A DNA stretch of 64,000 bases from Naegleria gruberi (GCA_000004985.1 GG738854.1), one strand, 5' to 3'; shown: positions 10,986 through 37,998, counted from the first letter of the stretch. Made by a program: numbers and translations. The notes: generated by a model not told the origin, from the letters alone.

Positions 10986-11529
10986 GTTGTTTGTGTTCGG
11001 TCTTTGTTCTTTGTATTTTGGAAAAAGAGGTGACAGTATTCCAGTGTTTACTACAAAGGTGTTGTGTTCTTTTTTCTGTTGAAATGAAGAAGTGATGTGG
11101 TCTGCTCTTTCGTAATGTTGAGAAACAGAAATAGCAAATTCTGCAATTCTCGAAGTTGACTGGATATTTTGGGAAGTGTTTGGTTAGACTTGGAAGAATC
11201 TGTCACAATATTGATATTGAGCAAGGTGGTGGGTTATCTATTGAATGTTAATAAACTCAAGATGATTCGGCTGGTATTTAAACTCAATATTTAATTTTAA
11301 AAAATGTCAAAAGTGTTCATAAAATGTTAGACTTGTCATTTCATAGGAGCTTTCAATGACATCCTTAAACAGCTAGACATTCCATATTTATTTTTTTGAG
11401 AATTTTGAATTCTCATTGTTATTTCATCATCTACAGCCTTTAACTAATACTTCCAGAACAGTATTTATTAATACAATTGATTTATTCAATATAGTATTAA
11501 TTTTTTTAATTATTGCAAATTTAAAAAAA

Positions 11530-12488
11530 ATGAATGAAAATGAATCGAGCCAATTTGATGAAATTCAAGTATTGCAATCAATGTACACTACCGAAGAATT
11601 AAAACCTCGGACGGGAATGGATAGATGTTGGCTCATTCCGATAAATGTTAATAATAATATTGATGATGATGAAACGACAGGATTGTTGGATTGTTTGGTT
11701 TTTGAATTTTGGTTTCATAGAAATTATCCTTCTGAATCGGAACCATTCTTTGAATTGAAAGGAGCTAAAAATTGGATTAATTTACCATATAATCAATTTA
11801 AGAATAATAACTATTTTGCTCAATCGGGATTGGATGAATTGGATAAAATTACTATAAAGGAGGCTCTGCAGATGGAGTTAAAGGCCATGTTCTCTCTTGG
11901 AGTACCAATTGCTTTTACTTGGATTGAGTTTTTGAGAAATGATTTATCGAACATGTTGGACGTAAATGAGATTTATAATCATGTTAAATTGAATCAAAAG
12001 GTTGTATCAATTCAACCAAATTCAAGAAAGTCTAACGAGGATAAAATCTCAACAAGGGTATTGGATATTATTCATGGGGAATCATTCACAGAAAAGAAAT
12101 CCAAATTTGTTGGACATGTGGCAATTGTAAAATCTTTGGAAGATGTCAACTTGATGCTGTCTCAATTATTGGAAGATGATAAAGTGGCAAATGCTACTCA
12201 CAACATTTATGCATATAGAATACGGCAAGGTGATCAAATTTTGGAAAATAGAGATGACGATGGAGAGACTGGAGCTGCTGATCAAATTCTTTATCTGATG
12301 CAAATCTCCAATGCAGAGAATGTATGCTGTGTGGTGACAAGATGGTATGGTGGTATAAAATTGGGAGCAGATAGATTCAGAGTAAGTAGTTCATTTCTAA
12401 TTGTTCATTGAACTAGGTTATCCATGATGAAACAATGAAAATTGAAATAGATCATTACAAACGTTGCCAAAAAAGTACTGCAGGATAA
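11530..12488 (+). CDS. IMPACT: IMPACT/Yih1 family protein (RWD domain + IMPACT/UPF0029 domain), 2 exons (11530-12381, 12417-12488; 35-nt intron)
   Basis: DEIQVLQSMY (RWD start); KSKFVGHVAIV...ATHNIYAYRI...DDDGETGAADQILYLMQI...VCCVVTRWYGGIKLGADRFR matches the IMPACT family signature. Confidence 0.8.
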
Positions 12489-12628: not shown

Positions 12629-13489
12629 ATGAGTCAAAGCCCACCTTCTGTTACATCCTCTATTGAAAACCAATTTTTGGATGACCAAATCTTTATCGGA
12701 GTCAGTGGTATGATTGGTTCAGGTGAGTATAATATCAATTTCGTCTGTTGTTTAACAATAATTTAATTAATAATAGGAAAGGTAAATATTTAGCCTATTT
12801 TTGTAAATTCATAAAATCAATATTCTTTAGACCACTCTCGCTAAAGCACTCGCTGAAAAGATTGGAGTTGGAGTACATTATGAACCAGTTATTGATAATT
12901 CCTACTTGGCTGATTTTTATTCTGATATGAAGACTTATTCTTTCCGTTTGCAAGTTTATTTGTTGAATAAGAGATTCGAACAACACCAGAAAATTATTTG
13001 GGGATCAAATGGAGGAGTTCAAGATAGAACTATCTATGAAGATGCTATCTTTGCCAAGGTTTTGATGGATACTGGAATGATGGAAAAGAGAGATTATGAA
13101 ACCTATGTTTCCCTTTTCAGAAACATGTCGAAGGTATGTTGTTATTGTGGTGATTTTTAATGAAGCCTTTTATGTTAAAATAGTTTATGAAACACAATAC
13201 AATGATTATTCACTTGGATGTTTCTCCAGAAACAAGCATGGAAAGAATCAAGATGAGAGGAAGAGAATGTGAAAGTGGAATTACTCTCGAATATCTTCAA
13301 AAGTTGCATAGTGGATATGAAGAATGGCTCACCAAGATTTCAAAGATTATTCCAGTTATTAAGGTTAATTGGAGTCAATTCAGAAGTCTTGAAAATGTTT
13401 TGGAAGAAGTTATGAAAGCCTATAATCAAATTCAAAATATTCAACATGTTACTTTTGAAAATAAGGATACCAGCAGTACAGTTCTCTAA
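12629..13489 (+). CDS. Deoxynucleoside kinase (dCK/dGK/TK2 family), 4 exons: 12629-12722, 12777-12781 (5-nt microexon), 12831-13133, 13184-13489
   Basis: The P-loop GMIGSGKTTLAKALAE is only reconstructed if the 5-nt exon GAAAG (between a GTGAGT..AATAG intron and a GTAAAT..CTTTAG intron) is included. Later motifs are DRTIYEDAIFAKV and LDVSPETSMERIKMRGRECESGITLEYLQKLH. Exon lengths sum to 708 nt in frame. Confidence 0.8.
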
Positions 13490-13660: not shown

Positions 13661-14792
13661 TTACACATTTTCAATCCCTCCAACTTTAGCTGATTCACTT
13701 TCTAATAATTGTTGCCAAGAAATACTAAGAACAACCATTCCTCTCGTCACAACTGGTTCTGTTTTGGCCAAATCTTTCAGCTCATCAATCATCATTACTA
13801 ATTCTTGAGCTACCTCATTATTTTCACTTCGTCTTTCTTCGTCAGCCAAAAACTTTATACAATAAATAAAATCGTCCACTGCCAGGATGTCATCTTCGTT
13901 CTGGTGGTGAATTGTCACAGAGCCCGAGCAACAAAAAAGTGATAAGGCATTCTCTAGTACTGTAAACAATGAATGGGCTGTAAGGGTGATGCAATAAATA
14001 ATGAATTTGTTGTACTCAATTGCAGATTCATTCTCCATAGACCTAGACTTTTCAATAAGAACTTCCAATATTTTTGGTTGTATGGCAACCCTATTTCCAA
14101 GAATTGTTTTAAGTCTGTCAATATTGACTAATCCATTTGGTTGAAGGATTCTGGTCTTTAAAACTAGATCATACATCTGAGAGACACTTTCCAGAGTTAA
14201 CCAATCTTTACTTCTTTCCCCATAGTCTATTGATTGAGATTAGAATTTTGAACATGAATAAATACAAACCCTTTTCTTCTTCCTCAAAGAACTTAATGGC
14301 AATTTTTATGGATTCCAAATCAAGGGGGGAGTTGGCATCAATCTTACGTTTCAATCTATCCCTAATCATTACTTTTCCTAATTTTTTAATTACTGACTGA
14401 AGGGCTGTTGTTATTTGTTGACTTGTTTCCTTATCTACTCCACTCAGAGTAGACCTGCTCGAAAGATTTGATGAAGGTCTCGATGTTTCCGAGCTGTTTG
14501 TACGATCCCTATACGAAGATAAAGGACGAGTATCTTCGTCATAGGCATGGTCAAACCTTACTTGTCTCCTCTCACTCATCCTACTACTTGAACGTAAAAC
14601 ACTCTCCCTATTTGTTGTTTCCTCTTCATCCTCAACACTATTTGTTTCAAATTCATCACCACTCATCCCAAGCCTAGTAAATTTATTTCTCTTCTCTCCT
14701 TCTCCATCTTCCTCAATATTAAATTCATTATTATTCTCTTCGCCATATTCTCCATCAGAGAGTTCATCCATATCCACACTTTCTCGAATCAT
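13661..14792 (-). CDS. Hypothetical protein(s): acidic/Ser-rich N-terminal ORF (14792-14208) followed by a 171-aa ORF (14176-13661); possibly one gene
   Basis: Two adjacent same-strand ORFs 31 nt apart. The first is Glu/Asp/Ser-rich low complexity. No recognisable domain. The junction could not be resolved by eye. Confidence 0.35.
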
Positions 14793-14930
14793 TTTTATGT
14801 AGTGTCGACAATTGATGGTATTTTGTTTTGCTTGTTTTTTTTTGCAACTTTTTAGGGTAAATTTTTGGCGCCAAAGTTCGCTTTCATGAAGTTTTAAACA
14901 ATTAGCTGTAAAGTTTGAAAGAAGATTAAT

Positions 14931-16042
14931 TTATTGCTCAGCAGATTCATCTTCCACTTGCTCACCTTGATTCTCTTGATGTTTCCTCTTTCGTTTTGGA
15001 ATGATTTTTTCAAGAGCTTGACCCCAAATTTCAAAATTAGTGAGCTCTGGTTTGGTTTGTTTCAATTCGATACAATCAGCAATGATTTCTACACATTGGT
15101 TGGTGGTCAGAACACTACATGCCTTCATGTCAATGTGCTTATCGAGTGGGAATTTAGCTGTTGGAATGTTATATTCTTTGGTGGCAATTTCATTACACAG
15201 ATTCTTGTGTCTGTTTCTATCAATAATACCTCCACTATTATTTTGTAATGAATATTTAAATTGTAAAATTTGAAAACTTACATTACATAGACATGTCCTT
15301 TTTCAAATTCTGTAATTTCATTCTCAGCATCAGCAGAAAGATAAATCACCTTATTTTCCTTCAATTTGTCCTCAAATTCCTTTGTAAAATGTTGATCTGT
15401 TAATTTCATCATCCACTTTTCAGGAAATCCTTCAAATTTCTTTAAACTATTGTATAATTCACCTTGTAAGGATGTAAATGTCATATAGAAAGGATTCTCC
15501 ATTCTCTTATAGGCAGCATAGCATTTTCCAAGTTGTTGAGCCAATGAAATAACTTCATTATTTGTCATCTTATCATTAAAGGAACAATCCACATTTATGC
15601 AAACATTGCAATCATTGGTTATTCCATTTTCTGTGGCTTGTTTCAACTTGTTGATGAGGTTCTCCTTTTTCATTCTTTGTGAACGAATTCTTTCTTCCTT
15701 CTTCTTTTTATTTTCTTCCACCAATTTTTCAAATTCCTCTGGAGCCAATTCGTCTCTCATCTTGGTGAAAAAATCATCACTATTCTTTTTCTTTTGTTCT
15801 TGTTTAACTTCCTTTTTTTGCTTTTTATGTTTCTTGAAATTATTCTTCCTGGTTTCCCATCTTTCCTTTCTCTTTTGCAATTTTTCATCCTTTGATGGTT
15901 TGTTTTCCGAATTTTCAGAAGTGTCATTACTGGCTTCCGATGGTGGTAATGTTATATTATTTTCTGCCATTGTTGATTGTTCCGATTTTTGTTCTTGCTC
16001 GACAAAATTTGATGAATTTCCTTCTGTTTGATGTTCAGTCAT
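14931..16042 (-). CDS. TRM10: tRNA (guanine9-N1)-methyltransferase Trm10/TRMT10 (SPOUT), 2 exons (16042-15282, 15234-14931; 47-nt intron)
   Basis: Lys-rich N-terminus, then VCINVDCSFNDKMT...FYMTFTSL... Across the GTAAGT...AATAG intron this continues ..HVYVIGGIIDRNRHKNL.. (matches TRMT10 VYIIGGLVDHNHHKG). Exon lengths 761 and 304 nt sum in frame. Confidence 0.85.
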
Positions 16043-16140
16043 TTTTTTGAATTTAAAAAGTGCAATTTTGTAATTTCATAAATATTTGAAATATATTTTG
16101 TTAAAACTTGAAGGGAGAGTGGTATTTATTTATGAGTCAA

Positions 16141-19100
16141 TTAAATGACAAATTCATTTTCAACCTTTTCATTGATAGTAATGAAAGGAATTTGTGTTTC
16201 CTTAACAATGGAGGGACCATCAACTGGACACGATTTACCAATCATTTCATCGAGACGTTTACTGGCATTCTTGAATTCTAATTGCCAGTAGAGTTGAGTC
16301 TTTTCACTTCCATCATTCATTGCTTCGGCCAATTCTAAACGAGCCTTGTGCCAATTTTCATAGGTCTCTTCAAGGAGATTGAGCCTTTTGTAGAGGGCAT
16401 TTCTTTGGTCTGCTTCTTCTTGGGTAAAGATTGGATTGATTTCTGACAATTTGAATCTTCCTTGTTTGATATCTTGGATGTTAAATTCAATTTGCCTAAC
16501 CTTCATTTGAAGTGTTGCAATTTCACTTTCCTTTTCTGCCTTATCTACTGATCGTTTGAGTCTTTCTAACTTTCTTTGTTTCTTGAGTTTCTTTTCTTCG
16601 AGGTGTGTCAAGTTTTCATTCACTGCCTCTTCGATAGCAGTTTGTTGAGCCTTATCTTCAATGGCAATCAATTGATTCTTGAGTTGGTGCTTGTTGATTC
16701 TATAGAGACAGTTCAAGTGGAATTTTTGACCTGATGGGAATACATAGAAGAAGTAATTCTTTCTCTCGTTTGGATCTTGAAGGTTAGGAAGGAGGACTCT
16801 TGATTTACACCTTTCACAAGTGTCATCATAGTCAATATCATAGTAAATATTCATAGATGATAAATCATTTCTGATCAATTCAGCATCATTGGTGGCATCT
16901 CTCATTTGGACTTCAACTCTGTTATTTTGGAATGAATAGGTATCCAAAATCGATTCAACATCTTTCAAGAGTTCATCGAGTTGAATCTTGGATGGGAAAT
17001 ATTTGATAACATCATCCAACAATAAGACATCACCAAAGTCTGTAATGAGATCGAGTGCTTTCTTGTAATTTTCTTCCTTGACATAGTATTTTACAATCTT
17101 GATAGCAAGTTTACGTTTGAGTTCTGGGTCTTCAACAAATTGAAGAACTGTTTCTTCTGCAAGCTTGACATTGTTAACTTTAGAGTCAAGAGCCAAGTCA
17201 ACTGCTTCCTCATAGAGTTCCAAAAGTCTGTATAACAATACACATGCTTTCCATTTTCTTCCTTCAATAGCCAATCTGAGTGCATATTCTTTAGTAAAGT
17301 AGATATTTTCGGATTCTTTAGTTTCCTTTAGGTAAGTTTCTAACAAGTCAGTATTTCTTTGATTGACCAGCAAGTAGACAAAGAGATCGTGAACAGTTCT
17401 ATTTTCATTCTTTTGATCCTCAATACACCATTTCAAATATTCTAATACTTGAGATTCCTCTTGTCTAACAGATCTTCTTCTTGTTTGACCAGCTTGAGAT
17501 CTGGTAATGTAGTCATATTTCAATATGGCTGGGACCAAATCTCTTGGGTTAAGGAATTGCAAACGTTTGAATGATTTAACAATTTCATCTCTCTTCTCAT
17601 AATTCATCAAAAGTGGAGTGTATCTGTACCAAATCAAGTTTTGAGGAGAAATACCTTCAGACTTTTCAGAGAAGGCATTTGGCTCAGTACAAAAGCTATT
17701 CAGGATAGTGTAGGCATTCTCGTAGTATCCAAGTTCCTTAGAGTGATTGGATTCGTATTCAGAGCTCTTAGCCATAGTAACACAATATTGAATAATTGTC
17801 AAATAATCACCAATAGCACTTGCAAAGAAGAGGAATTCTCTGACAAAGTTATTACTCAAAAAGATGTCATAAACAACGTCCTTGGCTTTTGCTAACAATT
17901 CCTTCTTATTGTAGGTAAACTTTCTCATAACAGCCTTAATTTTGTGAAGTTGTTGTTCTGCCTTGGTTTTTTCTTCCAATTGTTCTCTGTATTGATCTTC
18001 AGAGCATGCAACAGTAATAAATTTACCCATGATATGTCTCTGTTGATTCATCTTGAAGCACAATAATTCAACAATCCAAACAGCAAGAATGACACTCTCA
18101 GGACATTCTTCAATTTTCTTATCATTCTTCTAATTTCAAAGTTAGAAAATTCATAAAATTATTGCAAACTTACAAATCTGTGAAGCATATAGTACAAGTA
18201 GTTGTAGAGACCATTCTTCTTATCTTCTGGATCAACTTCCATGAATTTCATGGCAATTTCTTCAAAGTTTCTGTTTGTTCTGGCATAATCAAGAGCAGCA
18301 GTGTTGAAATCTCCCTTCTTAAAATGGTGATCAGCTTTAGCAGAGTAGATAGCCATTCTATTTTCCTCTGAGTTCATATCAAAAAGAGCTGACAAGTGAA
18401 GGGCCATCTTGAAGTATTCAGACTTGATCGATTCCATATCCTTGTCTTCAATTTCCAAAGCAGCATCAAGGAAAATTCTCCAAAATCCTTTAGCTTGATC
18501 ATCAATTGAAACTCTGTATAATTTCGAAGAGTTGAAAACAAAAACTGATTGATTACTCTCTTCTTTGGATTTGTCAATAAAGGATCTGTCAATCTTTACA
18601 CCGAGTGTATTAATCATTCTAACACCAAGAACGTGCTTACTCAACAATGAATACCTTGAATTACTTGGTGGAAGGAATGCAGGTTGCATAATAACATAAA
18701 ATTCGTCCTTGTAGCACACAAACAAATGGAAGCTGTTGAGTTCAATATCAACTGGTACATCATTTGGATTCTTGTGAGGTAATTTACCGGCCTTGTCGAG
18801 AGTCTTTTGAGAATCAGCGTAAATTCTACCAAAGACAACTTGTTTGGCTGTAATACAGGCAAAACAGAGTGAGTCATAGATTTTAAGAACACTCTTGTGC
18901 ATAATCTTTGGCTTCTCCAAATCGAGATGATCATCCTCATCGTAATTCTTGAAAGATGGAATGGCTGATTGCTCTGGGCCATACCTATCGAAAATATCAG
19001 TAATTTCACCACTTCCAGTAAATACTGCAACACCAGCAACACTTGAAACAAAAGCCATAAATTCGTTTCTTTCCTTAATTTCTGCAAATTCAATACTATC

Positions 19101-20456
19101 AATTCCAAAACCTTGCAAGTGAGAGTGAATAATAATTTGCTTCTCATTGTACAAGGTATCCATATTATAAACTTCTTCGCAGAGCATCTTGTCCATATTC
19201 TTCTTAAAATTAATGTGCCAGTCGTATTCTTCTCCTTCCACATTAAAGTCAACCTTGTAGATAGCACGTCCAGGAGAGACAGCCATAAACAACACCTTTC
19301 TTGTGGTGATATCATCTTGAACAATAGAGTGTGGAAAACCAATAGCTGTAATATATCGAGATCCATCCAAAACTAAATTCTTTTGTGTTCCAATTAATTT
19401 TGGTTCGAATTTGTAATAGTCAAAAGTGAGAGGATCCTTCACATCGGCCTCACTATCAGATTGTTCCAATTTTTGCTTATCAATATCAATAACATAATGA
19501 ACATAGGTTTCAGTTTCAGGATTTTCCAACACTACATAACATTCGAATCCATATGGAATACTGAGGAAAATCTTCTTGACATTGTAACCTTTCAATTCCT
19601 TTCTCTTATCAAACTTGACTTCAATACAGTGATCGTACTCATCGACAAACATTATTCTATCCTTAAAAGCAACAACGTGTAAAATTCTATCAGAAATTTC
19701 ACTCGATTCCACACTTGACATGGCATAATCAATAATTTGACCATAAAGTTTCAAACGATCAACTTCACCAATGGTAAATTTGGATTGCATTTCACGTCTT
19801 TCCTGAATAAAACGTTGAACATATTCATTCTCCTGAGAAACCATGAATGTTTGATTTTTAGATTCAGATTGATCATCTTCCTCATCATCAGAAAAATCAT
19901 CATCAGTTAAACTTTCACTTTCAGATTCTTCCTTTTCTTCTGCTTGTGGTTTAACATCTTCATAATTGGATTTTAATTCAGAAACTTTGGCATCATATTC
20001 AGCATCTTCGTGATCGACAGAGTGTGCCTTCCATCCATCAAAACCACCATCATCACTCATTGAATAATCAGAATAGAAAGAAGCTCCCGTCATTAAATCT
20101 CTCTTTCTCAATCTACTTTCTTCCTTTCGTTGGAGCATGAGTCTTTCCTGTTCCAATCTTTCCTCTTCATTATCTCCAAAGAATCGATTGAACATTTTAC
20201 GAAGTCCACCTCTCTTTCTCTTTGGTTCTTCCTTCTTGTTGTCATTTGATGGAGAAGGAGGATTTTGTGTTGTTGTATTGTTATTGGAAGAATCATTGTT
20301 TGTTGTTGTTGTTGTTGCTGAATTATTTGCTTCTTGATTTATTGTTGTTGAAGGTTGTTGATCGGCAACTGTGGGTGATGCTGATTGTGGAGATGATGTT
20401 GTTGGGAGAACTGTCAGGGTAATGTCATCAGCAGCTGCAAGGTTTGATGAAGACAT
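16141..20456 (-). CDS. VPS18: VPS18/Pep3 (HOPS/CORVET core subunit), ~1420 aa, 2 exons (20456-18174, 18129-16141; 44-nt intron); N-terminal ~230-aa S/T/N-rich and acidic extension
   Basis: YALRLAIEGRKWKACVLLYRLLELYEEAVDLALD is near-identical to human VPS18 (YALRLCAEHGHHRACVHVYKVLELYEEAVDLALQ). Also FEEIAMKFMEV vs FEEIALKFLE, and C-terminal RING-like C-x2-C...H-x2-C (CERCKSRVLL...QKFHLNCL) followed by a coiled coil. The two ORFs join in frame through GTAAGT...AAATTAG. Confidence 0.85.
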
Positions 20457-20517
20457 TTTTTATTATGATAGACAGCTGATGGGCAGTGCAAGACCTGAAG
20501 TGGGTTTTTCAGTTCTT

Positions 20518-23215
20518 TTACTTCCAATATCCTGCAAATCTGTGCATAATATCATGAACTGCAAATAGGGTTCTTTCAGAATCTGTAATAACACTCCTCA
20601 TGAATTGAATGGCTTCCTCCTCAGTGAGTTCGAGACATAGACGTTGCTGAACTGTGAGAATGTTAAGGAGCTGCTCACCAATTTTTGAATCTCTCGAAAT
20701 ACCATGATCAATATTTGGAATACCTGCATCAATCATTAAAATGAACAAATTGAGAATCATTCTAGAGTGTTGTCTTAATATATTGTAGGCGCTGCAGCAA
20801 TTTTTGATGAAACTCTTGTACCTTTCACTTCCAGAACCTCCCATTCCCAAGACCATGTCAGCACAGAGTTTCATTGGTGGAGGATACGGTTTTGGATCGT
20901 GGCCTAGAATGAATCCAAAATCAATGTGGAATAGTTTTCCATCAGGAGTCAGCAAAATATTATCCAAGTGTCTATCTCCAATTCCAAGAATATATGTAAT
21001 GACACAATATCCTGCACAACTCTTCATAAAGTTATCGAGAACTTCGTTCATCTCTTGATGAGATTTGTTCTTGTTCTGGTCTTTGAGCCATTCTTCAATG
21101 CTTTGTTTTTCAATTATTTTGGCAAATGGCGTGCTTGGAAGAACACACTCCAAAAATCCCTCCTGCTTTCCACAAGCTAACACTCTGTATGGTGTCAACT
21201 TTAAATCCATACCATTGTCTTTCAGAATAGTATCCATAGTATTAATAATTTGAATAATTAACTGATCTTGTCTCAAATCGTCGCCAATTTTAAAGATTGC
21301 ATGATATGTGCTCTTAGGACTGGTCTTGAATGCCAACTTCATTGGTCTAGCATTACTACTGAAAATAGTCACACCTGTAGGATCTACATTATTAACAGAA
21401 ACTCTTGGATCCAATGGAAGTATCAGTGATGAATTATCTTCAAATATACCATCCCATGAAGAGACTTTTCTTTCTGCTATTTCTCTGAATTTTTCCTTTA
21501 CAATTTCAGTGCTATTTCTATTGGTCTTACCAAAGAGACAAATTTCACTAAGGTTTTGAACCATCTTTGTTTGTCTTTGTAACATTTTTACAGTCTCGTG
21601 TTGTTTTTTCTAAATTAAATTTTTAGAATAATGTCATTCAATGTATTTAAACTTACCGTCTTGTAATTTTCTAGCACTCTAGCTCTGTAAGAATAGTAAA
21701 ATTCACCCATTATGCTATCCTCACATGCTATTGTCAAGTACCAGTATAAATCGTTCGATACCATTAAAGATCTCTCTGCCTTCTCAATTAAAAGATCTGC
21801 CAATTTACAAGTTCTCATATCATGCTCATATCTCAATGCTTGAACTAATTGGAGTAAGACAGACAATATATCTTGTTCTGGGGCGTCTTTCAGTACATTA
21901 ACAGCGTGATTTCTTACAGAATCCACTCCTTTGAAATATTTACTCAGCAAGAACAGAGCATCAGGTATATCAATCTTGGTCCAACCTTGCATTAATGAAG
22001 CAGCTTCCTTAGCTTCTCTGTCAATACTCCAATCCACAGATCGTAAAAATTTTGTAAGAGCTTTGGTTCCAATTCTCTTTTCTGATTGCAAGAATTTTCT
22101 ATACCTCCACAATAATGTCTTTTCATCCACTGAAATTTCTTGCAATGGTGACTTTTTCACAATTGCCTCAAGCATTTTCTTATCCCTTGCTTCTGGGTAA
22201 AGTAATAGATTATCATCCAAATTCATGGTCATCTTGAAATGCTTTACGGCTGATGGATTTTCCTTATCCCTGGCAACTTCTGGGTCTATGAAGAATTGAA
22301 CACCCTTTGTTTCAAAGCACTTGATCATTTGCTCTGCTCCATTGATATTACTCTGTTGTTTAAAGCTATTGAGTGTTGTAGGAGGAACTTCACGATTGAG
22401 CATGGAATAAGTTTCATTTTCAAAGAAAATTACTGGTGCTGAAAAATCACAAAATTCCAAATCCAAAAAAGCTATTCCTTTTCTCACAAGCAGACCCTCT
22501 CGTCTCATATTATTGATGGATTTTAATGAGGCCTCTCTCAGCCACTTTGAATTTTCATCCCATATATCCTTACAGGAATCAATTTCAATTTGAGTGAGTA
22601 AATCTGTAACAATTCCATCTTCTTCAAACACCGATAAAGGATTAGGTGCTACCCGTGGTGAAAGTAGGCATTTGTGATTGCCCGATCGCATAAGTCTTTA
22701 GATTCAGTTATTAATTCCATAAATTTCATCAAAATTACATACTTGCTTCTCAAATCAAAAACTGAATAGGAAGAACTGGCAACTATAATAGGCTTTCTTG
22801 GAGTAAATATATCATAAATTGTAACACATAATACAGTATCTACTGGAAGTTCGCTATACTTTACAGGAAATGAAATCCATTCCTTCCAACTGAAAATATT
22901 AATAATACAAATCAATAAATTCATACCTTTTCACAGATTTCATTTGATTTTTGTAACATGTCCTTGATGGTGGACATATCAGATGATTATTTACATAAAG
23001 GCCACATTCTACAAATAAATCCTCTAATTTTGGCAATAAAGAAGAGGAAGGCATTGTCGGATCAATAATAAATTCATTAATTTGATTTGCATAATTATTC
23101 TGATTCACTGAAACACTAAAATCAATTAAAACACCACTATTTGATTGATCAGTAGTAATTTTTCTAGCAAAGAAATCAGCATCCAACACTCCATCAATAT
23201 CTCCACTACATTAAT
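20518..23215 (-). CDS. VPS34: Phosphatidylinositol 3-kinase catalytic subunit type 3 (VPS34), multi-exon (C2, helical/PIK and kinase domains); 5' end approximate
   Basis: Kinase core HIDFGFILGHDPKPYPPPMKLCADMVLGMGG and IFKIGDDLRQDQLIIQI. Helical domain LLQLVQALRYE, DLYWYLTIACED. C2 region LYVNNHLICPPSRTCYK...WKEWISFPVKYSELPVDTVLCVTIYDI. All are collinear with human PIK3C3. Small GTAAGT introns separate the ORF-track pieces (one at ~21609-21655). Confidence 0.9.
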
Positions 23216-23646
23216 TCCGATCATATAGATGATTTATATTTAAATATATTTGTTGTTGTATTCCGAACCTACATCCTAACAGAAAAGTAACAATCCAAAT
23301 CACAACTCTTGATGGCTTTTATAGCCTTCAATCCGTTGAGTTTCATTTTTTTGAATTTTGCTTTTTATTAATAGCAGAAATTCTAATCGAAATACTGGAT
23401 GGAAAATAATTGAAACGTGATTAAGGTGGATTAAACGTGAATTTGTTTCATATGTTTGTTGCGAATTGTTGAGTTGATTGGGAATAAGAAATTAAAGTGG
23501 AATAGTTTAAGAATTATTGAGAATATTGAGTGTTTTAAATGTCTCGAAAAGGCAAAAATGTGTGTGATTGAGAAAGCACTTTCAATATTGAATTGAACTC
23601 GTATTCCAATCATAATGTACAAAATTTCAAGTGAGTGGATGAACAA

Positions 23647-24975
23647 TTAATCAAAAACTTTGAAAATAAATTGCATGAAACGATCAGAATAACTGCTTGG
23701 TGGAACTGTCGAGATGGTAGATGAATCATTCTTCATACTCTTGATATTGTTTGCTGCCTTCTTTCTCAGACCATACTTGGTGAAATAATCAATAAATCCA
23801 AAGTAATAAAATTCCTGAGAGTTTTTGGTGTTGGTAATTATTTGAAATTTGTCTCTTCCTTTTTCATTATTAGATTTGATATGATTTTGAATTGCTTCCA
23901 AAGTTCCCTCTTTTGGTGCCACAATGCCTGTGATGAGGGAATAGTCCATTACTATTTCACAAATTAGAAAGAGTTAGGTAAATTTGGATTATTTGAATTA
24001 CAAACCTTCACATGATGTGAAAAAGTTAACATCCTTCTTGAGTTGGAAAAGCATTTCTATTGACAAATCTTGCCCAATGTGGAACTTCATATTTTCATTA
24101 ATTAAATCCAAATCCTTCTTGATATTTTCTCCTTCCTTTGCAATTCTATCTGTTGTCGATCCTTTCAAATCATAAATCTTATTCATTTCAAAACCAACAT
24201 TAGGATCTTGAAGTTTGGCTCCAGAATTTGCAGTTGTTGGTGATGAAACTGAGCTGACACTCGAAGTTGTAGCAGTTGGTGCCTGGAACAAGTATTTCAT
24301 CACTACAAATCTAAAATCAGAGCCGTCCAATGTAAATTTGTGAAGTCCAAAAACTGGTACAATCAATGTATTTGGTTCATTCTTGATATATTCCATTAAG
24401 AGAGGTAAAATAACATTTCTAATAGTCTTGCTTTCATCCTTTGTCACTGTCTTGATGAGTAATTTCTTATCCTCTGTTACTGCAAACAAGGAACCACTTT
24501 TCCCATTCATTGTCTTCCATTCAAACTTGGTGTGACCTATTGAATTGAAATATTCTCTATCATTCATGCCACATGTTTTTCTCAAGTTTCCAAAATCGAG
24601 AGGACGAAAATCCTTGAATGAAAAAGCTTTGCAACTGTTGGTTTGTTTTTACATCATCACGAATCACATCAGACGTTTGATTGAAGTGCCAAAAAATCCA
24701 ATAATGGCCATGAAAAACCATCACGGATACAGATTATTTTAAATGATTTTACAACCTTTCCAATAAGAAGATTAGTATAATACTTACTCATTAGTCTTTG
24801 GCATCTTTAGTGATTTTTCCTTCTCAACTTCCTTTGCATATTTTTCACCTTCCTCAGCAGTTCTCTTCAATGAATATCTAATCACTGCTTTAATTTTAAG
24901 TTCAATTTCTTTAAAACGTGGTGAGTCCAAGGAGTTGTCACCAGGGCTATTTGTTGTTGGTGTTGAAGCCTTCAT
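23647..24975 (-). CDS. Phosphatidylinositol phosphate kinase (PIPK catalytic domain only, ~373 aa), 3 exons (24975-24788, 24634-24006, 23951-23647)
   Basis: GKSGSLFAVTEDKKLLIKTVTKDESKTIRN... and C-terminal MDYSLITGIV...YYFGFIDYFTKYGLRKK are PIPK signatures. Introns are 153 nt (GTAAGT..AACAG) and 54 nt (GTTTGT..AAATAG). Exon lengths 188+629+305 = 1122 nt in frame. Confidence 0.8.
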
Positions 24976-25619
24976 TTTTCTTTGTATTTCGTTATTCGAA
25001 ATTGGCCGAAACAGACTTGGGACCTTGTCAGTGTGTTTTGTTTGTTTTTAAAAGAGAAATTGTCTCTTGCTGTTTGTATCGTCTAAAATACAGAGATTCG
25101 TCAAAGTGTGCTCTACAGTTCGCTGTTTTTCCACAACATGAAGAAGAAAATGCACAAAAGGTCTCCTTGTTAATTTTGTAGCACCAATTTATCGAGATGA
25201 CAAACGTCACAATTTTTTTTGGACATGTTTGGTTGAGTATGTGCAACATTCCTGTTTGTGAAGGATAGCAAGGTCCTTAAGGTTTGAGGAAATTGTTTCC
25301 TTTGGAAGTGTTTTGTGTCTATTTACAAATCTTCCTTAGTGGATGCTTAACAGATAAGGACTAAAGGAAAGTAATATTCGGTTGATATTCGAAATGATGT
25401 GTTTACCCTTAACAATGAAAAAATGAGAGGATATTTAGATTTATGTGTGGTTTGAAATAATAGATCTGATCATTTAAGGGAGTTTGATAAGAAATAAACA
25501 AGGCATGTTCATACAATTTTAACTTTGAATAATATCTTTTATTGTTCTTTCAGGAAACTTTGATTCACAAACATTTAAATACATTGTAAGTGATGCTTCC
25601 TCATCACAGAACATTAGCA

Positions 25620-26582
25620 TCATTGAAGAGTTTCAACTCTCCAGCAGAATGCCTCATCTTTTACTCTGGAGAAAAACAATTCCATCTTATTTCTATCATA
25701 CAAATCTTCGTGCTCTTCTTCTTCTTCATATTCATCTGAATAATTAATGAAAGGATAGTTGTATGCTACAGCAAGCTTAATACCCTGACCGTAAGGTAAG
25801 AACTCCAGATAGAGATAGGTTTGATGTTCCTCCACGAAATACATCTTACATGATTCATCATACTTGAGAGTTTTTTGTTTCTTTCTACAAGATTCCTCTC
25901 TGGAAGTTTCTTCTTCATCAATAGCTACAGTTTCATCACTAGCACTTTGTGAATTCACTTCTTGTTCTCTAGTGTTGATTGAAATATCATAAAATCCCTT
26001 CGATATCTTCAATACTGAAATGTTTTCTAAAGGATTTTCTAGATATTGCTTAAAGTGATTATGTAGTTCATCATAACTTTTAAAATCAATTCGTTCTTCA
26101 AAAAAGCCTTCAATCTCAGTATACTCTTTAGGTATTGCAGAGCGAGCCATGCTGTTCGCAAATAGAGTAAACAACATATTTTTAATGCCAATTCCATTCA
26201 TTCCAAAGTTATCTTGAAAAAGTGGTTGGATAGCCTTAACCTTACTCTCATAACATTGCATTCCATTGATGCTCATTGCCTCATAAACAACATATAAACC
26301 AGCAATCATTTCGGAATCAAAGTAACCATAGAATTTCGATTCATTAACAATATTACCAAAGTCTTTCAAAGTGATAAACTCTTCGCCATTTTCATCTTTT
26401 TGAATAGCTGTACAGGATTTAATTTCTCTCAAGAACCAAGCCTGATTTCTTGTAGTCGATTCACTGAGGTATTTTCTAATCTTTTCTACCATTATTTTGC
26501 AATTACCTGTTGCCTTGATAAATTCACTAATATTGCCCATTTTTTTTACTATTGGTTTAATTTCTAGTTTTGCAACGAACAT
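25620..26582 (-). CDS. Hypothetical protein, 320 aa, acidic C-terminus
   Basis: Long ORF with coding-like codon usage; no recognisable domain. Confidence 0.4.
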   Translation of the reverse strand: MFVAKLEIKPIVKKMGNISEFIKATGNCKIMVEKIRKYLSESTTRNQAWFLREIKSCTAIQKDENGEEFITLKDFGNIVNESKFYGYFDSEMIAGLYVVYEAMSINGMQCYESKVKAIQPLFQDNFGMNGIGIKNMLFTLFANSMARSAIPKEYTEIEGFFEERIDFKSYDELHNHFKQYLENPLENISVLKISKGFYDISINTREQEVNSQSASDETVAIDEEETSREESCRKKQKTLKYDESCKMYFVEEHQTYLYLEFLPYGQGIKLAVAYNYPFINYSDEYEEEEEHEDLYDRNKMELFFSRVKDEAFCWRVETLQ

Positions 26583-26800
26583 CTAATTAACTGCTGTAGA
26601 ATGTTGTTGTGCTATGTATTCGTTCTACGAACAAAATTTTTAGAGTTGAGGAAAAGTAATTTTAATAAATAAATTATCATTCGATTCATTTGTGAATACT
26701 CTTCATTAGATTCCAACTCAACAAAGAAACCCCAAGAAATAGGCAACAAGGAAATAATTAGATGAAAGTTCAAAAGATCATTTATATTGTTTTTCAGTTA

Positions 26801-27565
26801 TTAGAAACTTTTCAATCTTTCATTTACTTGTTCTAAATTGAATTCACCTTCAACCTTCATATTCGTTTCATCAATTTCTCCTCCCTGTCCATCAATGCAA
26901 TAAACCAACCTATTCTCACCCAATGAATTATTCCTTTCTTCCACTAACTTTTCCTGTTTATCACTTTGCAATTCAATATTCACTTTCCACTCCTTTCCAT
27001 AAGTATAGAATAATTGCATTTCTCTATTCTTATCCTCTGCAAATACATCCTGCAATAGGAAGTCATGTTCTTCCTGAATGTGTGGAAAGTGTCGATGCGT
27101 GGCATTCTCACTACTCTCATACGACGGCATTTGGAGAATACTTTTAGTATTTCCATAGAATTTTCCAGAAGAATCAATATAGTAATGAGGATGAATTCGA
27201 TGAGTTTCATTATTCCAATCCAAAGCATCCATTACAATATTGAAAAAATAATGCAAATTGATGGTGGAAGGAACGTGAATCGTTCTGAAAAAGTGTGATA
27301 GATGGGAAACTGAAATTTTGAAAATCAAATAAGGGGATTCAGAGTGATCGATTTTGGAAACCTTGTTGGATGGTTGAGTATGTTCATTGAGTGATTCATC
27401 TTCGATGAATGAGTCTTTTTTGGTGTTGGGACTTGTGTTTTCAATGTTTGCACGCTTTTTATCGATATGATGGGATTCTTGTTCTTGCAGATGTTGTTGG
27501 TGAAGTTCAATTTTGTGAGGCAAGTGGTGATAAACCGAATCCTTTCGAATATTAGAAGTAGACAT
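26801..27565 (-). CDS. Protein with plasmid pRiA4b ORF-3-like domain (Pfam PF07929-like), His/Gln-rich N-terminus
   Basis: YLIFKISVSHLSHFFRTIHVPSTINLHYFFNIVMDALDWNNETHRIHPHYYI ... LFYTYGKEWKVNIELQ follows the PRiA4_ORF3 pattern (..IWRRilVP..tL.dLH.vIQ.AmGW...HLHeF.i ... F.YeYDFGD.WeH.i.lE). Recalled from memory, not searched. Confidence 0.5.
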   Translation of the reverse strand: MSTSNIRKDSVYHHLPHKIELHQQHLQEQESHHIDKKRANIENTSPNTKKDSFIEDESLNEHTQPSNKVSKIDHSESPYLIFKISVSHLSHFFRTIHVPSTINLHYFFNIVMDALDWNNETHRIHPHYYIDSSGKFYGNTKSILQMPSYESSENATHRHFPHIQEEHDFLLQDVFAEDKNREMQLFYTYGKEWKVNIELQSDKQEKLVEERNNSLGENRLVYCIDGQGGEIDETNMKVEGEFNLEQVNERLKSF

Positions 27566-27723
27566 TTTTTTTTAAGGTTTGAAAATCAAATTTAGGAATT
27601 TTCCAACTTTATTTCGTTCAATTTATTCAATGCAAGATTATCTTCAATATTCAAATTAAGATTACAATTTCAAAAATCAAGTTTATTTCAAAATATTAAA
27701 TTTAAAAAAAAATATTGAAATGA

Positions 27724-29068: not shown

Positions 29069-29530
29069 TTAGTTTAGTTTAAATTTCAGAATAGATTCCA
29101 TGTCGACATCTAAAAATGAGTACCTTCTTCCCACGTATGCTCCATTTTGCTGCTCTGAAGCGTGAGAATCACTAGATGTATTAGATTGGTTACTTAATTC
29201 TGACATGGTACATTCGTCTATGATCTGATTATCGTCCTCGTTTGTATTTGCGAGTAACGAAAAGTTGGGGCTTCCACCAAATGAGGATTTACTGTTTTCA
29301 CACTTGTCACTCTTTGCAAAATTTGAGGATACAACACTCATGGTATCACGTGTCACTATTGATTGCTTTCTCTTGAGTGTCTTTTTGGTTTTGTTAATCT
29401 TTGAGTTATTGGGAAATGAGTAGGAATGCAGGTTCTTATCTACTTGCTCAGAGGTATTGGATGTTGGAACTATGGTTGTAGCTGGTAATCCCATCATTGC
29501 AGGGTTTGCTGGTTGATGATTTAATGCCAT
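29069..29530 (-). CDS. Hypothetical Ser/Thr/Asn-rich protein, 153 aa
   Basis: ORF only; low-complexity composition. Confidence 0.3.
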   Translation of the reverse strand: MALNHQPANPAMMGLPATTIVPTSNTSEQVDKNLHSYSFPNNSKINKTKKTLKRKQSIVTRDTMSVVSSNFAKSDKCENSKSSFGGSPNFSLLANTNEDDNQIIDECTMSELSNQSNTSSDSHASEQQNGAYVGRRYSFLDVDMESILKFKLN

Positions 29531-29733
29531 TCTTTTTTTTGTGGAAAAGTCAAAGCAGCCAGACAGTTATTTTAAACCGTGACCCAATGTGTTACTTAGT
29601 ACGGATAACGTATGGGTGATTAAAAAAGTACTGTTCCTGTTTGTTTGTTGTACAAGTTGAGTAATTTCTCAAAATTGATTGAAAACCCAAAAGCTAACAG
29701 AAAGCTAAAAATAAGTTTATTTTCTTATCCTTA

Positions 29734-31021
29734 TTACTTTTCTGGTTTTGGTGATTCTAAATTTCTGAGGAACTCTTCCTCTTTGCTTGAAGGTGGACAA
29801 ATAGAATTATTCAATGTGACAAAATCACCTTGATTATACAAACTCACTACAACAAACCAATTTCCATCAGCAAGTTCTTTTGTTAGACCATCAAAAGCAA
29901 CACCCATACTTCTTCCATTTCTGAAATATTCAACATAACCTAATGCTGTGTTTATATAAATACCAATTCTGTCACCTCTTTCACAACGTTCTCCATAATC
30001 CACTTGAGTCTTTTTTGAATACTTTTTCATTGACCAAACATTATATCCGTATGAGTTGGCAATAAATCCAACAGTCCATGAATCATTACTATTATTTTGG
30101 TTTGAAGTTTGTAAGAAAAATTCAACTAAATACATACAAATATGATGTTTTTTGTTTGCTGATACCAATTACAATATTGAAATTCTTAGTACTCTCAATT
30201 GTTACTTCATAATAATTCTTAATGTGGTATTTCAGTAATTTCATATTTCCGTAATATGTTGACAATTTTGAAGCTGTTATTTGTAATTCGTCTATTCTTT
30301 CATTTTCGAATGGTTTGTAAGATCCTACGGATGGTGATGTAATTTCTGGTCCAAGATAATTATTACCATCAGCACCAGCAACTTTGAGAATGTAATTATT
30401 ACTTGATGGAAACCCATTCACTTCCTCACTATCAGCAAAACATTCTTCCTCGATCTCTGGTTTTTCATCCAAATAACTCCAATCATCCATTTCAGAAGGT
30501 TGAGAGGACGAATAGTCCATAGCAATAATTGGATACCTTGCTGATACACTGTACCAATTCTTTCCAGTAGATTCCTTGCATATTAAGGTTTTTCCTCCAT
30601 CCACAACTACAACATTTGGGTGGCAGTTTGCCATTTGGAATCTCTTCTTTAAAAGCCACTTTTGAACAGTAAAGTAATCCACCAATTCTGTTAATCCATA
30701 ATATGATGCTTCCAATTGAACAGCCTTGGCAGTTACTGGTTGATACTTTACAGAAGGCAACATTGTAAGTGATAAATTACCTCCATTTCTCAAGTAATTC
30801 AAAAGGAAATGAAAATATGTTCCATCCCGATCAATAAATATATTTCCATCTCTATCTCGATCAACAGGGTGTCTTCCATTTGTCATTGAAGCCAACACAT
30901 GTTCCAGGTCATTCTTTCCAACCTGTTGAGTCAATGTAAATCTACTCGTAGTAAATAATTTACCACCCACATTCAATGTAATAACAGAAGGTTCCGACAA
31001 ATCAGCCGATAACAAGGACAT
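29734..31021 (-). CDS. BTB (KCTD/T1-type) + SPRY domain protein, 2 exons (31021-30138, 30088-29734; 49-nt intron GTATGT..AATAATAG)
   Basis: T1/BTB_2 region ITLNVGGKLFTTSRFTL...DRDGTYFHFLLNYLRNG. SPRY region after the intron: NDSWTVGFIANSYG...GDRIGIYINTALGYVEYFRNGRSMGVAF...WFVVVSLYNQGDFVTL. The in-frame ATG is at 31021 (the ORF-track start is upstream). Confidence 0.75.
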
Positions 31022-31608
31022 ATTAAAAATTAATGTAATATTATAATACAACGCAATCAGATGATTAAATATTTTACAACAACAAGACGTGAGGGAGAGA
31101 AGGTCCTAGGTAGACGTCGTCTTGTGTAGGCAATTTTTTTAGGCTTTGATTTATTAATAATTCGGAGGAGAGAAGCTTATTAGAGAGGAAGTACCTTTGT
31201 ACAGTTTTTCTCCACAACAAGAATAAGATTGAGGGTTTTAGCAATTAATCGATGAAGTAGTACTGGATGAGGTGTATTGATTTTTTCAGTACTTGGATTG
31301 GACAAGTTCATTTCAAAGATTGGTCCATTCGAGATGAAGCATCAATAATATCTATCTGTTGTATTGGTGTTGCCTTAAGGGGCAGGTATGATCGAATATA
31401 TTTTTGCATTACTAATAGCAAAGAGAGTTGAGTGTTCTTGTTGATAGAAGTAAAGCTGTTTACTTTTTTCGCTTTTAATTGTTGTTTTCCAAATATTTTC
31501 AAAATAAATTAATTAATTGTATGATGATGATTGTAATCCTAAATAATTTTCTATTCCTTTCATCAATATTAATTCCAATTTAATTTTCTCATCTAAGTGA
31601 TAATAAAT

Positions 31609-31929
31609 CTATTGCTTGTTGTGCTCGGAAGGAGTTTTGGCTTTAATAGAAAGAGCATGCAAACCACTCTTAAATTCCTCAGCAACAGCATCATTCACCA
31701 TACGATGACGTTCCAATAACCTCTTTCCTTGAAAGCTCTCACTCACAACAAGTAAATCAAAGTGAGTTTCTCCTGCACCTCCCGAATGTCTTGTTTCAGC
31801 ATGGTGAGCATGTCTATGTGATTGGTCTTCAAATTCCAACACGATTGGATTCAACTTTTCAGTGATTGCCTTTTGCATACGTAAGAGTCTTGTTGTTACT
31901 TGTGTGGCTTGGCTCATGATTTTGTTCAT
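31609..31929 (-). CDS. BolA-like protein, 106 aa
   Basis: HFDLLVVSESFQGKRLLERHRMVNDAVAEEF...HALSIKAKTPSE is the BolA signature. Confidence 0.85.
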   Translation of the reverse strand: MNKIMSQATQVTTRLLRMQKAITEKLNPIVLEFEDQSHRHAHHAETRHSGGAGETHFDLLVVSESFQGKRLLERHRMVNDAVAEEFKSGLHALSIKAKTPSEHNKQ

Positions 31930-32117
31930 TATTTTTGATTGTTGAAATTGATGGGATTATCCTCATCCAAAAATTTATTATTATCTGATGACGATGGATT
32001 TCTGTATTCTTTTGCTTCCACTGAATTAAAATTTGATCCTGTTAGTGCCTTTCTAATTTTCTAATGATGTGATTTTGGATGTTAATGTTGAATAATCAAT
32101 TGATTATTTAAATAATA

Positions 32118-32408
32118 TTATTTCCAAGGATTTATCCAAAAAGATGGCTTATACAGAGACACAACATCAATGGACTGATAATAGTCTTCCGATCTTGGAG
32201 GAGCCATCTCAAATTTCTTCATTTCGGAATCACTGATTTTTAGAATGGACTCAAACTTGTTGTTGAGATTTCCTTCAAACACTCCTTTACGTTCTTCCTT
32301 GCTTGGTTTTGTTTTGGCTTTTTGCTCTTTAGCTTGTTGTTTTTGCTCCTTTCTGAGTCTTCTCAGTTCATGCTTGTCTGTTGTTGTTGATGGCTGTGGA
32401 TTGTTCAT
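32118..32408 (-). CDS. Small basic Lys/Glu-rich hypothetical protein, 96 aa
   Basis: ORF only. Confidence 0.3.
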   Translation of the reverse strand: MNNPQPSTTTDKHELRRLRKEQKQQAKEQKAKTKPSKEERKGVFEGNLNNKFESILKISDSEMKKFEMAPPRSEDYYQSIDVVSLYKPSFWINPWK

Positions 32409-32529
32409 GTTGAGTTGATTTTTTTGAATATGAAAATATTTTTAGAAAACTTGTAAGATTTGAAATTGTAAAATTCGCTCAACTTCAAGATTTACAACCT
32501 CAAATTTAAACAATAAAAGAATTGAGTAT

Positions 32530-33396
32530 TTACTTGAATTTCTTGACAAACCCAGCAACATTTTTCAAATAAGGTAATAATTTTGTTACATGAGAGAGTT
32601 GACTTGCGACCTTTGGATCTGCTCCCAATCTCAAACTAGTAAATTCTACCAATTCAACAGCCAAAGACATTGGATCCAAACTATTCTTAATTACAATTTT
32701 AGAGACATCTTCCACAAGTTGATCCTTTTGCTCTTGGCTCAATAAATTGCTATATCTGATAGCCTCAAATATTATGTTCATTGATTGATAAATTACATAT
32801 TTAAACATGGTTTCTACATAAGAAATGAATGGAACCATATTCAATATTTTCGATAACCCTGATTTCTCTATTTTCATTTGATGTATTGGATGATCTTGAC
32901 TCTGAAATAAATCTTGGAAGGATTTTAAAAACTTATTTTGAGTTTCTTGATTCGTTTTCTCTTGTTCAGTTTCACATTTATCCGTTTGTTTCTGATATAC
33001 TACAAGGGCCTTTTCCTCTGCTTCCTTTTCCAATTTTTCAATGTTAATCTCCTTCAAATAGGCAATCAAATTATTAAAATACTGAAGAATATTAATGTTT
33101 GAGATTGTTTCACCAGCAGAGACAACACTTTCCTTCACCTGATTAATATATCCACCCAAATTTGCTCCAACATTTCCCATCCACTTAGAAGCAGCAGCAG
33201 AAGATGACGATGGCTGTGTATTCTTTTCATCTTCATTTTCCTTCTTCCAAAATTCATACATTTTGCATTGATGAAAATTCCTCCCAGAAAATTCTCCACT
33301 AATTCCCTTCATCATCATTGATCGGAATAGCAATCTATTCGAGGATCTTGATTGTAGAGTGGATACAACACGAACCAATGAGAAACACTTTTGCAT
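32530..33396 (-). CDS. Hypothetical protein with N-terminal mitochondrial-presequence-like segment and coiled-coil middle
   Basis: N-terminus MQKCFSLVRVVSTLQSRSSNRLLFRSMMM (Arg/Ser-rich, no acidic residues); no domain recognised. Confidence 0.4.
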   Translation of the reverse strand: MQKCFSLVRVVSTLQSRSSNRLLFRSMMMKGISGEFSGRNFHQCKMYEFWKKENEDEKNTQPSSSSAAASKWMGNVGANLGGYINQVKESVVSAGETISNINILQYFNNLIAYLKEINIEKLEKEAEEKALVVYQKQTDKCETEQEKTNQETQNKFLKSFQDLFQSQDHPIHQMKIEKSGLSKILNMVPFISYVETMFKYVIYQSMNIIFEAIRYSNLLSQEQKDQLVEDVSKIVIKNSLDPMSLAVELVEFTSLRLGADPKVASQLSHVTKLLPYLKNVAGFVKKFK

Positions 33397-33487
33397 TTTT
33401 TTTTAAATCTAATATTAAAAGTTCAATCAAAATGGAAAATCAAGATTTTACAATGGACAGTATGGTATGGTGTTTATAAAGATCCAA

Positions 33488-34603: not shown

Positions 34604-34748
34604 TTTTTTTGATAGATGAATGAATATTCGGAAAGGTATCTGTTTATTACTTTAATTGTTTCAAATTCGAAATTGAAAAAGTCAAATTGAAGTTGATTGC
34701 ACAATGAATGTCTTTTCGAATGATTTCGAATAGTAATGAAGATCAGAT

Positions 34749-37700: not shown

Positions 37701-37998
37701 CATTAATTGCCTTCTCTGTTACCAGATAAGAAGATAGCCAAACCAATAAACACCCACTTAGAATCATTACTGAAATAATTGAAACAATAAAGAGATTGAG
37801 TGGAATAATACCTGTGCAGCAAGTACGCGGCTGTGTCTTTGGATTGAGTGGTTCTTTGATGGCCACAACGGATGGAGTTGTCTGTTCCTCATACTCACTT
37901 CCTGATGGTGCAACTTTAGTCATTGAAACTGAAGGATGATGATGATGTTTTTTCTTATTGTTTTTCAATACAATTACGAAAGAGCTGCTAATTTGCAT
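34749..37998 (-). CDS. Receptor-type nucleotide cyclase-homology protein (N-cyto - TM - Cache-like extracellular domain - TM - class III cyclase-homology domain); reading frame interrupted by a 712-bp transposon at 36702-37413
   Basis: ORF 37998-37351 gives an N-terminal cytoplasmic segment, TM1 (IIPLNLFIVSIISVMILSGCLLVWLSSYL) and the start of a Cache-like sensor. ORF 36848-34749 continues the sensor, then TM2 (ILTTSISIGVTVGIIVLGIVGSFVTGLVV), then a cyclase-homology domain (..TTIFGDIVNLLGP.. and RVGVSIGDGYVGNIGSSTARYFSMVGSVSEQA). The ends of both ORFs are encoded by the transposon TIRs. Confidence 0.65.
36702..36790 (+). repeat. Left terminal inverted repeat of the MITE-like element (contains internal mini-palindrome GGATCCACTGTAAGTGGATCC)
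   Basis: Exact inverted match to 37413-37354; diverges after a 10-nt insertion. Confidence 0.8.
37330..37413 (-). repeat. Right terminal inverted repeat of the MITE-like element
   Basis: Reverse complement of 36702-36761 and beyond. Confidence 0.8.

Follow-up and report, generated by a model that had tools for sequence, protein, structure and literature searches.

Do neighbouring genes with related roles mark a functional cluster, or do they share no more than an inherited gene order? This question is raised by a stretch of Naegleria gruberi DNA (GCA_000004985.1, GG738854.1; 64,000 nucleotides (nt), hereafter the window) in which the genes for a VPS18 homologue, a VPS34-type class III phosphatidylinositol (PI) 3-kinase and a PIP kinase (PIPK) lie side by side. 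A first reading of the DNA, made by a model from the sequence alone (the sequence-only reading), had described three consecutive minus-strand genes covering 8.8 kb and had offered co-regulation, read-through transcription or chance as explanations. Gene order in relatives indicates that the neighbourhood is very probably neutral microsynteny in a compact genome, and neither a functional cluster nor a regulated unit. Of the explanations originally offered, chance, together with inherited gene order, is thus favoured, and the functional-cluster reading found no support in synteny.

The window DNA is AT-rich and eukaryotic (GC ~33%), and its introns are short with GT..AG boundaries; identical public proteins place it in N. 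gruberi NEG-M. Minus-strand gene models were assembled by hand from an open reading frame (ORF) map and splice sites, and all N. gruberi positions are window coordinates. Positions 16141-24975 (8835 nt, minus strand) contain three genes in succession with no further plausible gene among them, as the sequence-only reading had it. The features are as follows.

16141-20456, minus strand: VPS18/Pep3 homologue, 1423 amino acids (aa); two exons (20456-18174 and 18129-16141) and a 44-nt GT..AG intron.
20457-20517, minus strand: spacer of 61 nt from the VPS34 stop codon to the VPS18 ATG.
20518-23346, minus strand: class III (VPS34-type) PI3-kinase, 876 aa; five exons (23346-23273, 23205-22927, 22889-22743, 22695-21657 and 21609-20518) and introns of 67, 37, 47 and 47 nt.
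23347-23646, minus strand: spacer of 300 nt from the PIPK stop codon to the VPS34 ATG.
23647-24975, minus strand: stand-alone PIPK, 373 aa; exons 24975-24788, 24634-24006 and 23951-23647, and introns of 153 and 54 nt.

The VPS34-VPS18 spacer is as short as had been claimed (61 nt against 62 nt). The PIPK-VPS34 spacer had been put at ~430 nt, the first VPS34 exon having been missed; with exon 23346-23273 and the 67-nt intron that follows it, the VPS34 ATG falls at 23346 and the spacer shrinks to 300 nt.

Gene order was compared across relatives, reading from PIPK towards VPS18. Distances in brackets are spacers.

N. gruberi (window): PIPK, VPS34, VPS18, TRM10, 332-aa gene, dNK (opposite strand), IMPACT (opposite strand).
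N. fowleri: PIPK, esterase-like, RNase_T, VPS34, (83 nt), VPS18, zf-A20/Ank, TRM10, 332-aa gene, dNK, F-box, 2OG/actin, IMPACT.
Environmental contig L005, related to N. fowleri: PIPK, esterase-like, RNase_T, VPS34.
N. lovaniensis: PIPK, five genes (~9 kb), VPS34, (118 nt), VPS18, zf-A20/Ank.
Environmental Naegleria L011: VPS34, (77 nt), VPS18, TRM10.
Willaertia magna: VPS34 and VPS18 ~170 kb apart on one 337-kb contig; TRM10 51 nt after VPS18; PIPK on a different contig.
Acrasis kona and a more distant environmental relative: neighbours of VPS34 unrelated.

PIPK lies directly beside VPS34 only in N. gruberi; two genes intervene in N. fowleri, of which the esterase-like one is erythromycin-esterase-like, and five in N. 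lovaniensis. Of the genomes compared, N. gruberi alone has all three genes side by side. VPS34 and VPS18 are adjacent in N. gruberi, N. fowleri, N. lovaniensis and L011, and are not adjacent in Willaertia, A. kona or the more distant environmental relative; their junction is genus-wide and probably no older than Naegleria. Thus the adjacency that the sequence-only reading had proposed to look for in relatives breaks down even within the genus for PIPK-VPS34, and outside the genus for VPS34-VPS18. In Willaertia, a VPS18 gene hidden in the unannotated 3.9-kb gap downstream of VPS34 was considered and rejected: tblastn and tblastx searches of the gap were empty, and the gene lies elsewhere on the same contig.

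The surrounding genes provide the background against which this adjacency is to be read. In the window they are the following.

14976-16042, minus strand: TRM10-type tRNA m1G methyltransferase (Pfam tRNA_m1G_MT), 98 nt downstream of VPS18; taken as the control gene.
13667-14429, minus strand: orthologue of the N. fowleri 332-aa gene; part of the collinear block.
12813-13480, plus strand: dNK-like gene; part of the collinear block.
11416-12411, plus strand: IMPACT/RWD gene; part of the collinear block.

From PIPK to IMPACT, the window and N. fowleri are collinear over seven genes, four of which (TRM10, the 332-aa gene, dNK and IMPACT) are unrelated to the other three. The N. gruberi block has six adjacent pairs, and half of these are neighbours in N. 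fowleri as well: VPS34-VPS18, TRM10-332-aa gene and 332-aa gene-dNK. TRM10, for which tblastx returned matches to N. fowleri, W. magna and environmental Naegleria, is functionally unlinked to VPS18, VPS34 and PIPK, yet it is collinear with all three in relatives. It is a same-strand neighbour of VPS18, at spacers of 51-98 nt, in N. gruberi (14976-20456), L011 (520-5911) and Willaertia (L009 10001-15473). Because VPS18-TRM10 is adjacent in all three, this unrelated pair is more deeply conserved than VPS34-VPS18; within Naegleria, VPS34-VPS18 is conserved no better than unrelated neighbour pairs. Adjacency in relatives beyond background synteny, the mark of a selected cluster, was not found, and the comparative data show no sign of selection for the three-gene adjacency.

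Under neutral microsynteny, VPS18, VPS34 and PIPK would be separate, independently transcribed housekeeping genes. The VPS34-VPS18 tandem would have arisen in the Naegleria lineage, or been lost in relatives, and would have been kept within a larger collinear block, unrelated genes included. Contact between PIPK and VPS34 would have come about only in the N. gruberi lineage, by gain or loss of the two to five intervening genes. How often such contacts are expected by chance was estimated roughly, taking ~15,700 genes for N. gruberi, as the genome paper reportedly gives, and ~200 genes for a pathway in a loose definition. Expected adjacent same-pathway pairs were then ~2.5 per genome (200^2/15,700), and consecutive same-pathway triples ~0.03 per genome per pathway (200^3/15,700^2). 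By this rough estimate, a triple would be uncommon for a single pathway chosen in advance and unsurprising once many pathways and windows are scanned.

The arrangement on the strand is likewise ordinary. In annotated relatives, short same-strand spacers are the rule (51, 65, 80, 84, 100, 119, 140, 143 and 153 nt), and in all of these relatives unrelated genes lie 50-150 nt apart on one strand; neither such spacers nor same-strand runs are unusual in these genomes. The same-strand order and short spacers looked for in an operon are present at the locus (61 and 300 nt), but they are general in these genomes. The three genes lie within a minus-strand run of ~7 genes (13661-27571), and a second minus-strand run of ~6-7 genes spans 29069-38046. 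An analysis of Discoba (bioRxiv 10.64898/2026.07.29.740908) found ~2 genes per directon in Heterolobosea; intergenic regions were equally long whether inside or outside a directon, and no polycistronic unit was detected. The two runs in the window, split by one short plus-strand ORF pair, are longer than the reported directons.

Spacer sequences from four Naegleria lineages were aligned between VPS34 and VPS18. The ~35 nt closest to the VPS18 ATG were conserved, while the 5' part was variable and the length ranged from 61 to 118 nt. Directly upstream of the ATG, all four lineages carry an element of the form CCyrTCA ... TCyATCAy ... AAAAAATG (20457-20495, minus strand), and CATC-like motifs similar to it occur upstream of several further window genes. 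This conserved element may be a core promoter or initiator. A run of A ahead of the ATG is a general feature of window genes; this run and the conserved ~35 nt fit a compact gene-specific promoter or 5' untranslated region of VPS18. We infer separate promoters and monocistronic transcription. The spacers and the long PIPK intron contain no hidden RNA gene: no tRNA was detected across 12-29 kb, and Rfam (E<=1) returned only two sub-threshold chance matches. Searches of the literature by accession or locus tag yielded nothing on this locus, and those combining Naegleria with polycistronic, Vps18, Vps34 or HOPS yielded nothing either.

The three gene identifications made by the sequence-only reading all proved correct, including that of VPS18, which is missed by Pfam and by the public annotations of relatives. 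In a phmmer search of all PDB chains, the VPS18 protein matched only Chaetomium thermophilum Vps18 (8dit_C, E=2.5e-42) and yeast Pep3 (7zu0_C, E=5e-20). The 8dit_C match covered query residues 645-1238, with the alpha-solenoid and RING region aligned. A profile built from four VPS18 sequences again retrieved Vps18/Pep3 alone from all PDB chains, and the remaining chains of those HOPS entries were unmatched by the VPS18 query in the phmmer and hmmsearch searches of the PDB. By this specific homology, the window gene is assigned as a Vps18 homologue, set apart from Vps11, Vps8, Vps39 and Vps41. The N. lovaniensis orthologue bears the UniRef name 'Pep3/Vps18/deep orange domain-containing', and identity to the orthologues was 79% for N. 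fowleri and 68% for W. magna. These two orthologues (L008 10001-14430 for N. fowleri and L009 10001-14302 for W. magna) carry the label 'hypothetical protein'. Neither the N. gruberi exons nor the N. fowleri protein had a significant match in Pfam, including Pep3_Vps18 and the Clathrin/VPS repeat; the Clathrin repeat was sub-threshold in the Willaertia orthologue (18 bits against a cut-off of 29.6). The exact 1423-aa model was absent from a collection of 15 billion proteins.

The VPS18 protein has an acidic, low-complexity N-terminal extension of ~210 aa and a degenerate RING. Its CxxC is kept, but 'FPCxHxFH' has become 'FPSGQKFH' and the last CxxC has become 'CPVD', so that ~3 zinc ligands are substituted. 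These substitutions are identical in N. fowleri and Willaertia, and the domain still aligns; a full set of zinc ligands for the C-terminal RING-H2 is present in neither Naegleria nor Willaertia VPS18. For the N-terminal beta-propeller and ensuing alpha-solenoid expected of Vps18, an AlphaFold2 model of residues 205-761, based on a three-sequence alignment, was beta-rich and then helical, but its mean pLDDT (predicted local distance difference test) score of 35.8 makes it unreliable.

For VPS34, Pfam matched PI3K_C2, PI3Ka and PI3_PI4_kinase in that order on successive exons, and nothing else. Judged from these domains, the gene has the class III architecture of C2, helical (PIK) and kinase domains without Ras-binding or adaptor-binding domains, and the translated model carries the GDRHLDN and HIDFG motifs. 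The 881-aa N. lovaniensis orthologue was 64% identical to the model over 100% coverage, and the N. fowleri orthologue is also 881 aa; identities were 55% for W. magna and 41% for A. kona, in which the gene is annotated as VPS34. The public N. gruberi 'phosphatidylinositol 3-kinase' XP_002680329.1 (536 aa) is 100% identical over 61% of the VPS34 model. This public model is truncated: over 21657-23346 it lacks N-terminal sequence, with the C2 domain, that both the 876-aa model and the 881-aa N. fowleri and N. lovaniensis orthologues contain.

A second class-III-like PI3K paralogue of 1051-1098 aa occurs in Naegleria (P0009, N. lovaniensis) and Willaertia (P0008, W. magna). Plant VPS34, the best match of the window gene outside Heterolobosea, resembles this paralogue more (45-46% identity, ~520 bits) than it does the window gene (36% identity over 90% coverage, ~450 bits). 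By these comparisons, the window gene is classed as VPS34-type and as the more divergent of two paralogues, not necessarily the sole or canonical VPS34. The two paralogues suggest a heterolobosean duplication of VPS34.

The only Pfam domain in the 373 aa of PIPK is PIP5K, as the phrase 'catalytic-domain-only PIPK' in the sequence-only reading implied. The model is identical (100% over 100%) to the public N. gruberi 'phosphatidylinositol-4-phosphate 5-kinase' (P0036), and its catalytic core is intact, with the GKSGS (G-loop), IKT, DLKGS, MDYSL and FID motifs. Its best PDB matches were human PIP4K2B, 2A and 2C (E values from 4e-34 to 4e-29), followed by zebrafish PIP5K1A (~2e-21) and PIKfyve (2.6e-6); the corresponding bit scores were 121 for PIP4K2B, 80 for PIP5K1A and 30 for the PIKfyve kinase domain. 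The activation loop, KKAANNIK, aligns with KKAAHAAK of PIP4K2B, with Ala where PIP5Ks carry Glu, and it is conserved across Naegleria. Among the 148 best homologues from a library of 1.84 billion proteins, this specificity position was Glu in 124 and Ala in 22. The public label of PI4P 5-kinase stands against this PIP4K-type activation loop. On the strength of these matches and motifs, we assign PIPK to the type I/II family with PIP4K-like features.

For the placement of PIPK among type I, type II and Fab1 kinases, which the sequence-only reading had suggested checking, the PDB ranking runs from PIP4K to PIP5K and then, at a distance, to PIKfyve. In a neighbour-joining tree of 147 PIPK domains, PIPK grouped with protist Ala-type PIPKs (Bonamia, Soliformovum), apart from the animal-type PIP4Ks, at bootstrap values of no more than 16%, too low to fix its position. 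According to Khadka & Gupta 2019 (PMC6523245), the PIP4K/PIP5K split is holozoan and the N. gruberi enzyme is an ancestral, undifferentiated PIP4K/PIP5K. Small Ala-type PIPKs in Naegleria, Bonamia (Rhizaria) and Soliformovum (Amoebozoa) (P0070, P0071) are awkward for this Holozoa-only view of PIP4K.

A Fab1/PIKfyve-type PI 3-phosphate (PI3P) 5-kinase was rejected for PIPK: the score was 30 against 121 bits, and the 373-aa protein is without FYVE, CCT-like and CCR domains. The proposal in the sequence-only reading that PIPK might convert PI3P to PI 3,5-bisphosphate (PI(3,5)P2) finds no support in the ranking of the bit scores or in the PIP4K-type Ala. Since PIPK does not appear to be a PI3P 5-kinase, it would not act directly on the product of VPS34. 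The Willaertia orthologue of PIPK (P0038; L007 10001-11232) has TKNNL in place of the GKSGS of the G-loop and has lost DLKGS and the activation-loop KK; from these changes, it is probably a pseudokinase.

Several observations weigh against neutral gene order. All Naegleria genomes examined keep the VPS34-VPS18 tandem, with a spacer of at most 118 nt, despite the reportedly low overall synteny of N. gruberi with N. fowleri (bioRxiv 10.1101/2020.01.16.908186). PIPK lies within 10 kb, its strand and order unchanged, in N. gruberi, N. fowleri and N. lovaniensis. The 61 nt between VPS34 and VPS18 leave scant room for a 3' end and a promoter, and the two transcripts probably overlap or interfere. 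In animals, PI 5-phosphate (PI5P) is made from PI(3,5)P2; PI5P is the likely substrate of a PIP4K-like enzyme, which would link PIPK to VPS34 indirectly within the pathway. A rival reading is that VPS34 and VPS18 form a transcriptionally coupled tandem, by read-through, a bicistronic transcript or a VPS18 promoter in the 3' end of VPS34, selected for as a link between PI3P synthesis and the supply of the HOPS/CORVET core. The constant strand and order and the spacers of 61-118 nt in four Naegleria lineages are consistent with coupling, as are flanking genes that vary among species immediately beside the pair, and an AATAAA lies 5-10 nt ahead of the VPS18 ATG, so that the 3' end of VPS34 may overlap the 5' end of VPS18. 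However, AATAAA should occur often by chance at 33% GC, the conserved element at the ATG suggests that VPS18 has its own promoter, and polycistronic units are reportedly lacking in Heterolobosea (bioRxiv 10.64898/2026.07.29.740908). Moreover, Willaertia, Acrasis and another relative do not have the pair together, unrelated neighbour pairs are kept equally well or better, and unrelated genes have equally short spacers. Based on these data, a selected, coupled tandem is unlikely. The claim that VPS34-VPS18 is a lineage-specific operon-like pair in an otherwise monocistronic eukaryote, through read-through or overlapping transcripts, is quite improbable; if true, it would mean co-dosing of PI3P production and the HOPS/CORVET core.

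Selection could also act on all three genes, as an endolysosomal phosphoinositide cluster held together by shared chromatin or co-regulation. Indeed, all three lie within ~10 kb on one strand, their order unchanged, in N. gruberi, N. fowleri and N. lovaniensis, and knowledge from animals suggests that a PIP4K-like enzyme could act downstream, on the route from PI3P through PI(3,5)P2 to PI5P. Yet two to five unrelated genes (esterase, RNase_T and others) split PIPK from VPS34 in other species, the linkage is absent in Willaertia, whose PIPK orthologue looks catalytically degenerate, and unrelated genes of the block are equally well retained. Nor is PIPK of the Fab1 type, and the VPS34-type gene in the window is the more divergent of two paralogues. 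A selected three-gene cluster is thus very improbable. Were it real, it would represent rare pathway-level clustering of core membrane-trafficking genes in a free-living eukaryote, and perhaps operon-like regulation outside Euglenozoa. Under neutral microsynteny, which we prefer, the gene identities, gene models and synteny pattern established here offer nothing novel beyond corrections to annotation. Their practical value lies in these corrections: the truncated VPS34 model, a VPS18 missed by Pfam and labelled hypothetical, and the label of PIPK.

Two further features of the window lie outside the block. An ORF two genes upstream of PIPK (26801-27565, minus strand) has a domain of the PRiA4_ORF3 family (E=1.9e-10), which takes its name from a protein of a bacterial plasmid. 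A short segment is present twice, at ~47.05-47.18 kb and 48.68-48.88 kb (span 47046-48877), as a repeated domain or element; it has tblastx matches at unrelated positions in Willaertia (L002 16823-17008) and in an environmental Naegleria contig (L005 2489-2641).

Among known systems, the fungal and plant biosynthetic clusters and the yeast GAL and DAL clusters resemble the locus in having adjacent non-homologous genes of one broad pathway, here three. They differ in that the three-gene adjacency occurs in one species only and involves housekeeping trafficking genes and not a dispensable, conditional pathway. The polycistronic units and operons of Euglenozoa and nematodes share with it same-strand genes and a very short spacer (61 nt), and the host belongs to Discoba, as do trypanosomatids. 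Unlike those systems, Heterolobosea have ~2 genes per directon and ordinary intergenic regions, the locus has a gene-proximal element upstream of VPS18, and spacers of equal length separate unrelated genes. At the level of a single gene, PIPK is like the animal type II PIP kinases (PIP4K2A/B/C) in having only a kinase domain, in its best PDB matches, in its GKSGS, DLKGS and MDYSL motifs and in its activation-loop Ala; it differs from them in lacking a supported grouping with holozoan PIP4Ks in the neighbour-joining tree. Microsynteny blocks of congeneric protists are the system from which no difference was detected. As in such blocks, seven genes are collinear in order and orientation between N. 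gruberi and N. fowleri and are interrupted by gene insertions or deletions, functionally unrelated genes are mixed, and adjacency decays from Naegleria to Willaertia to Acrasis.

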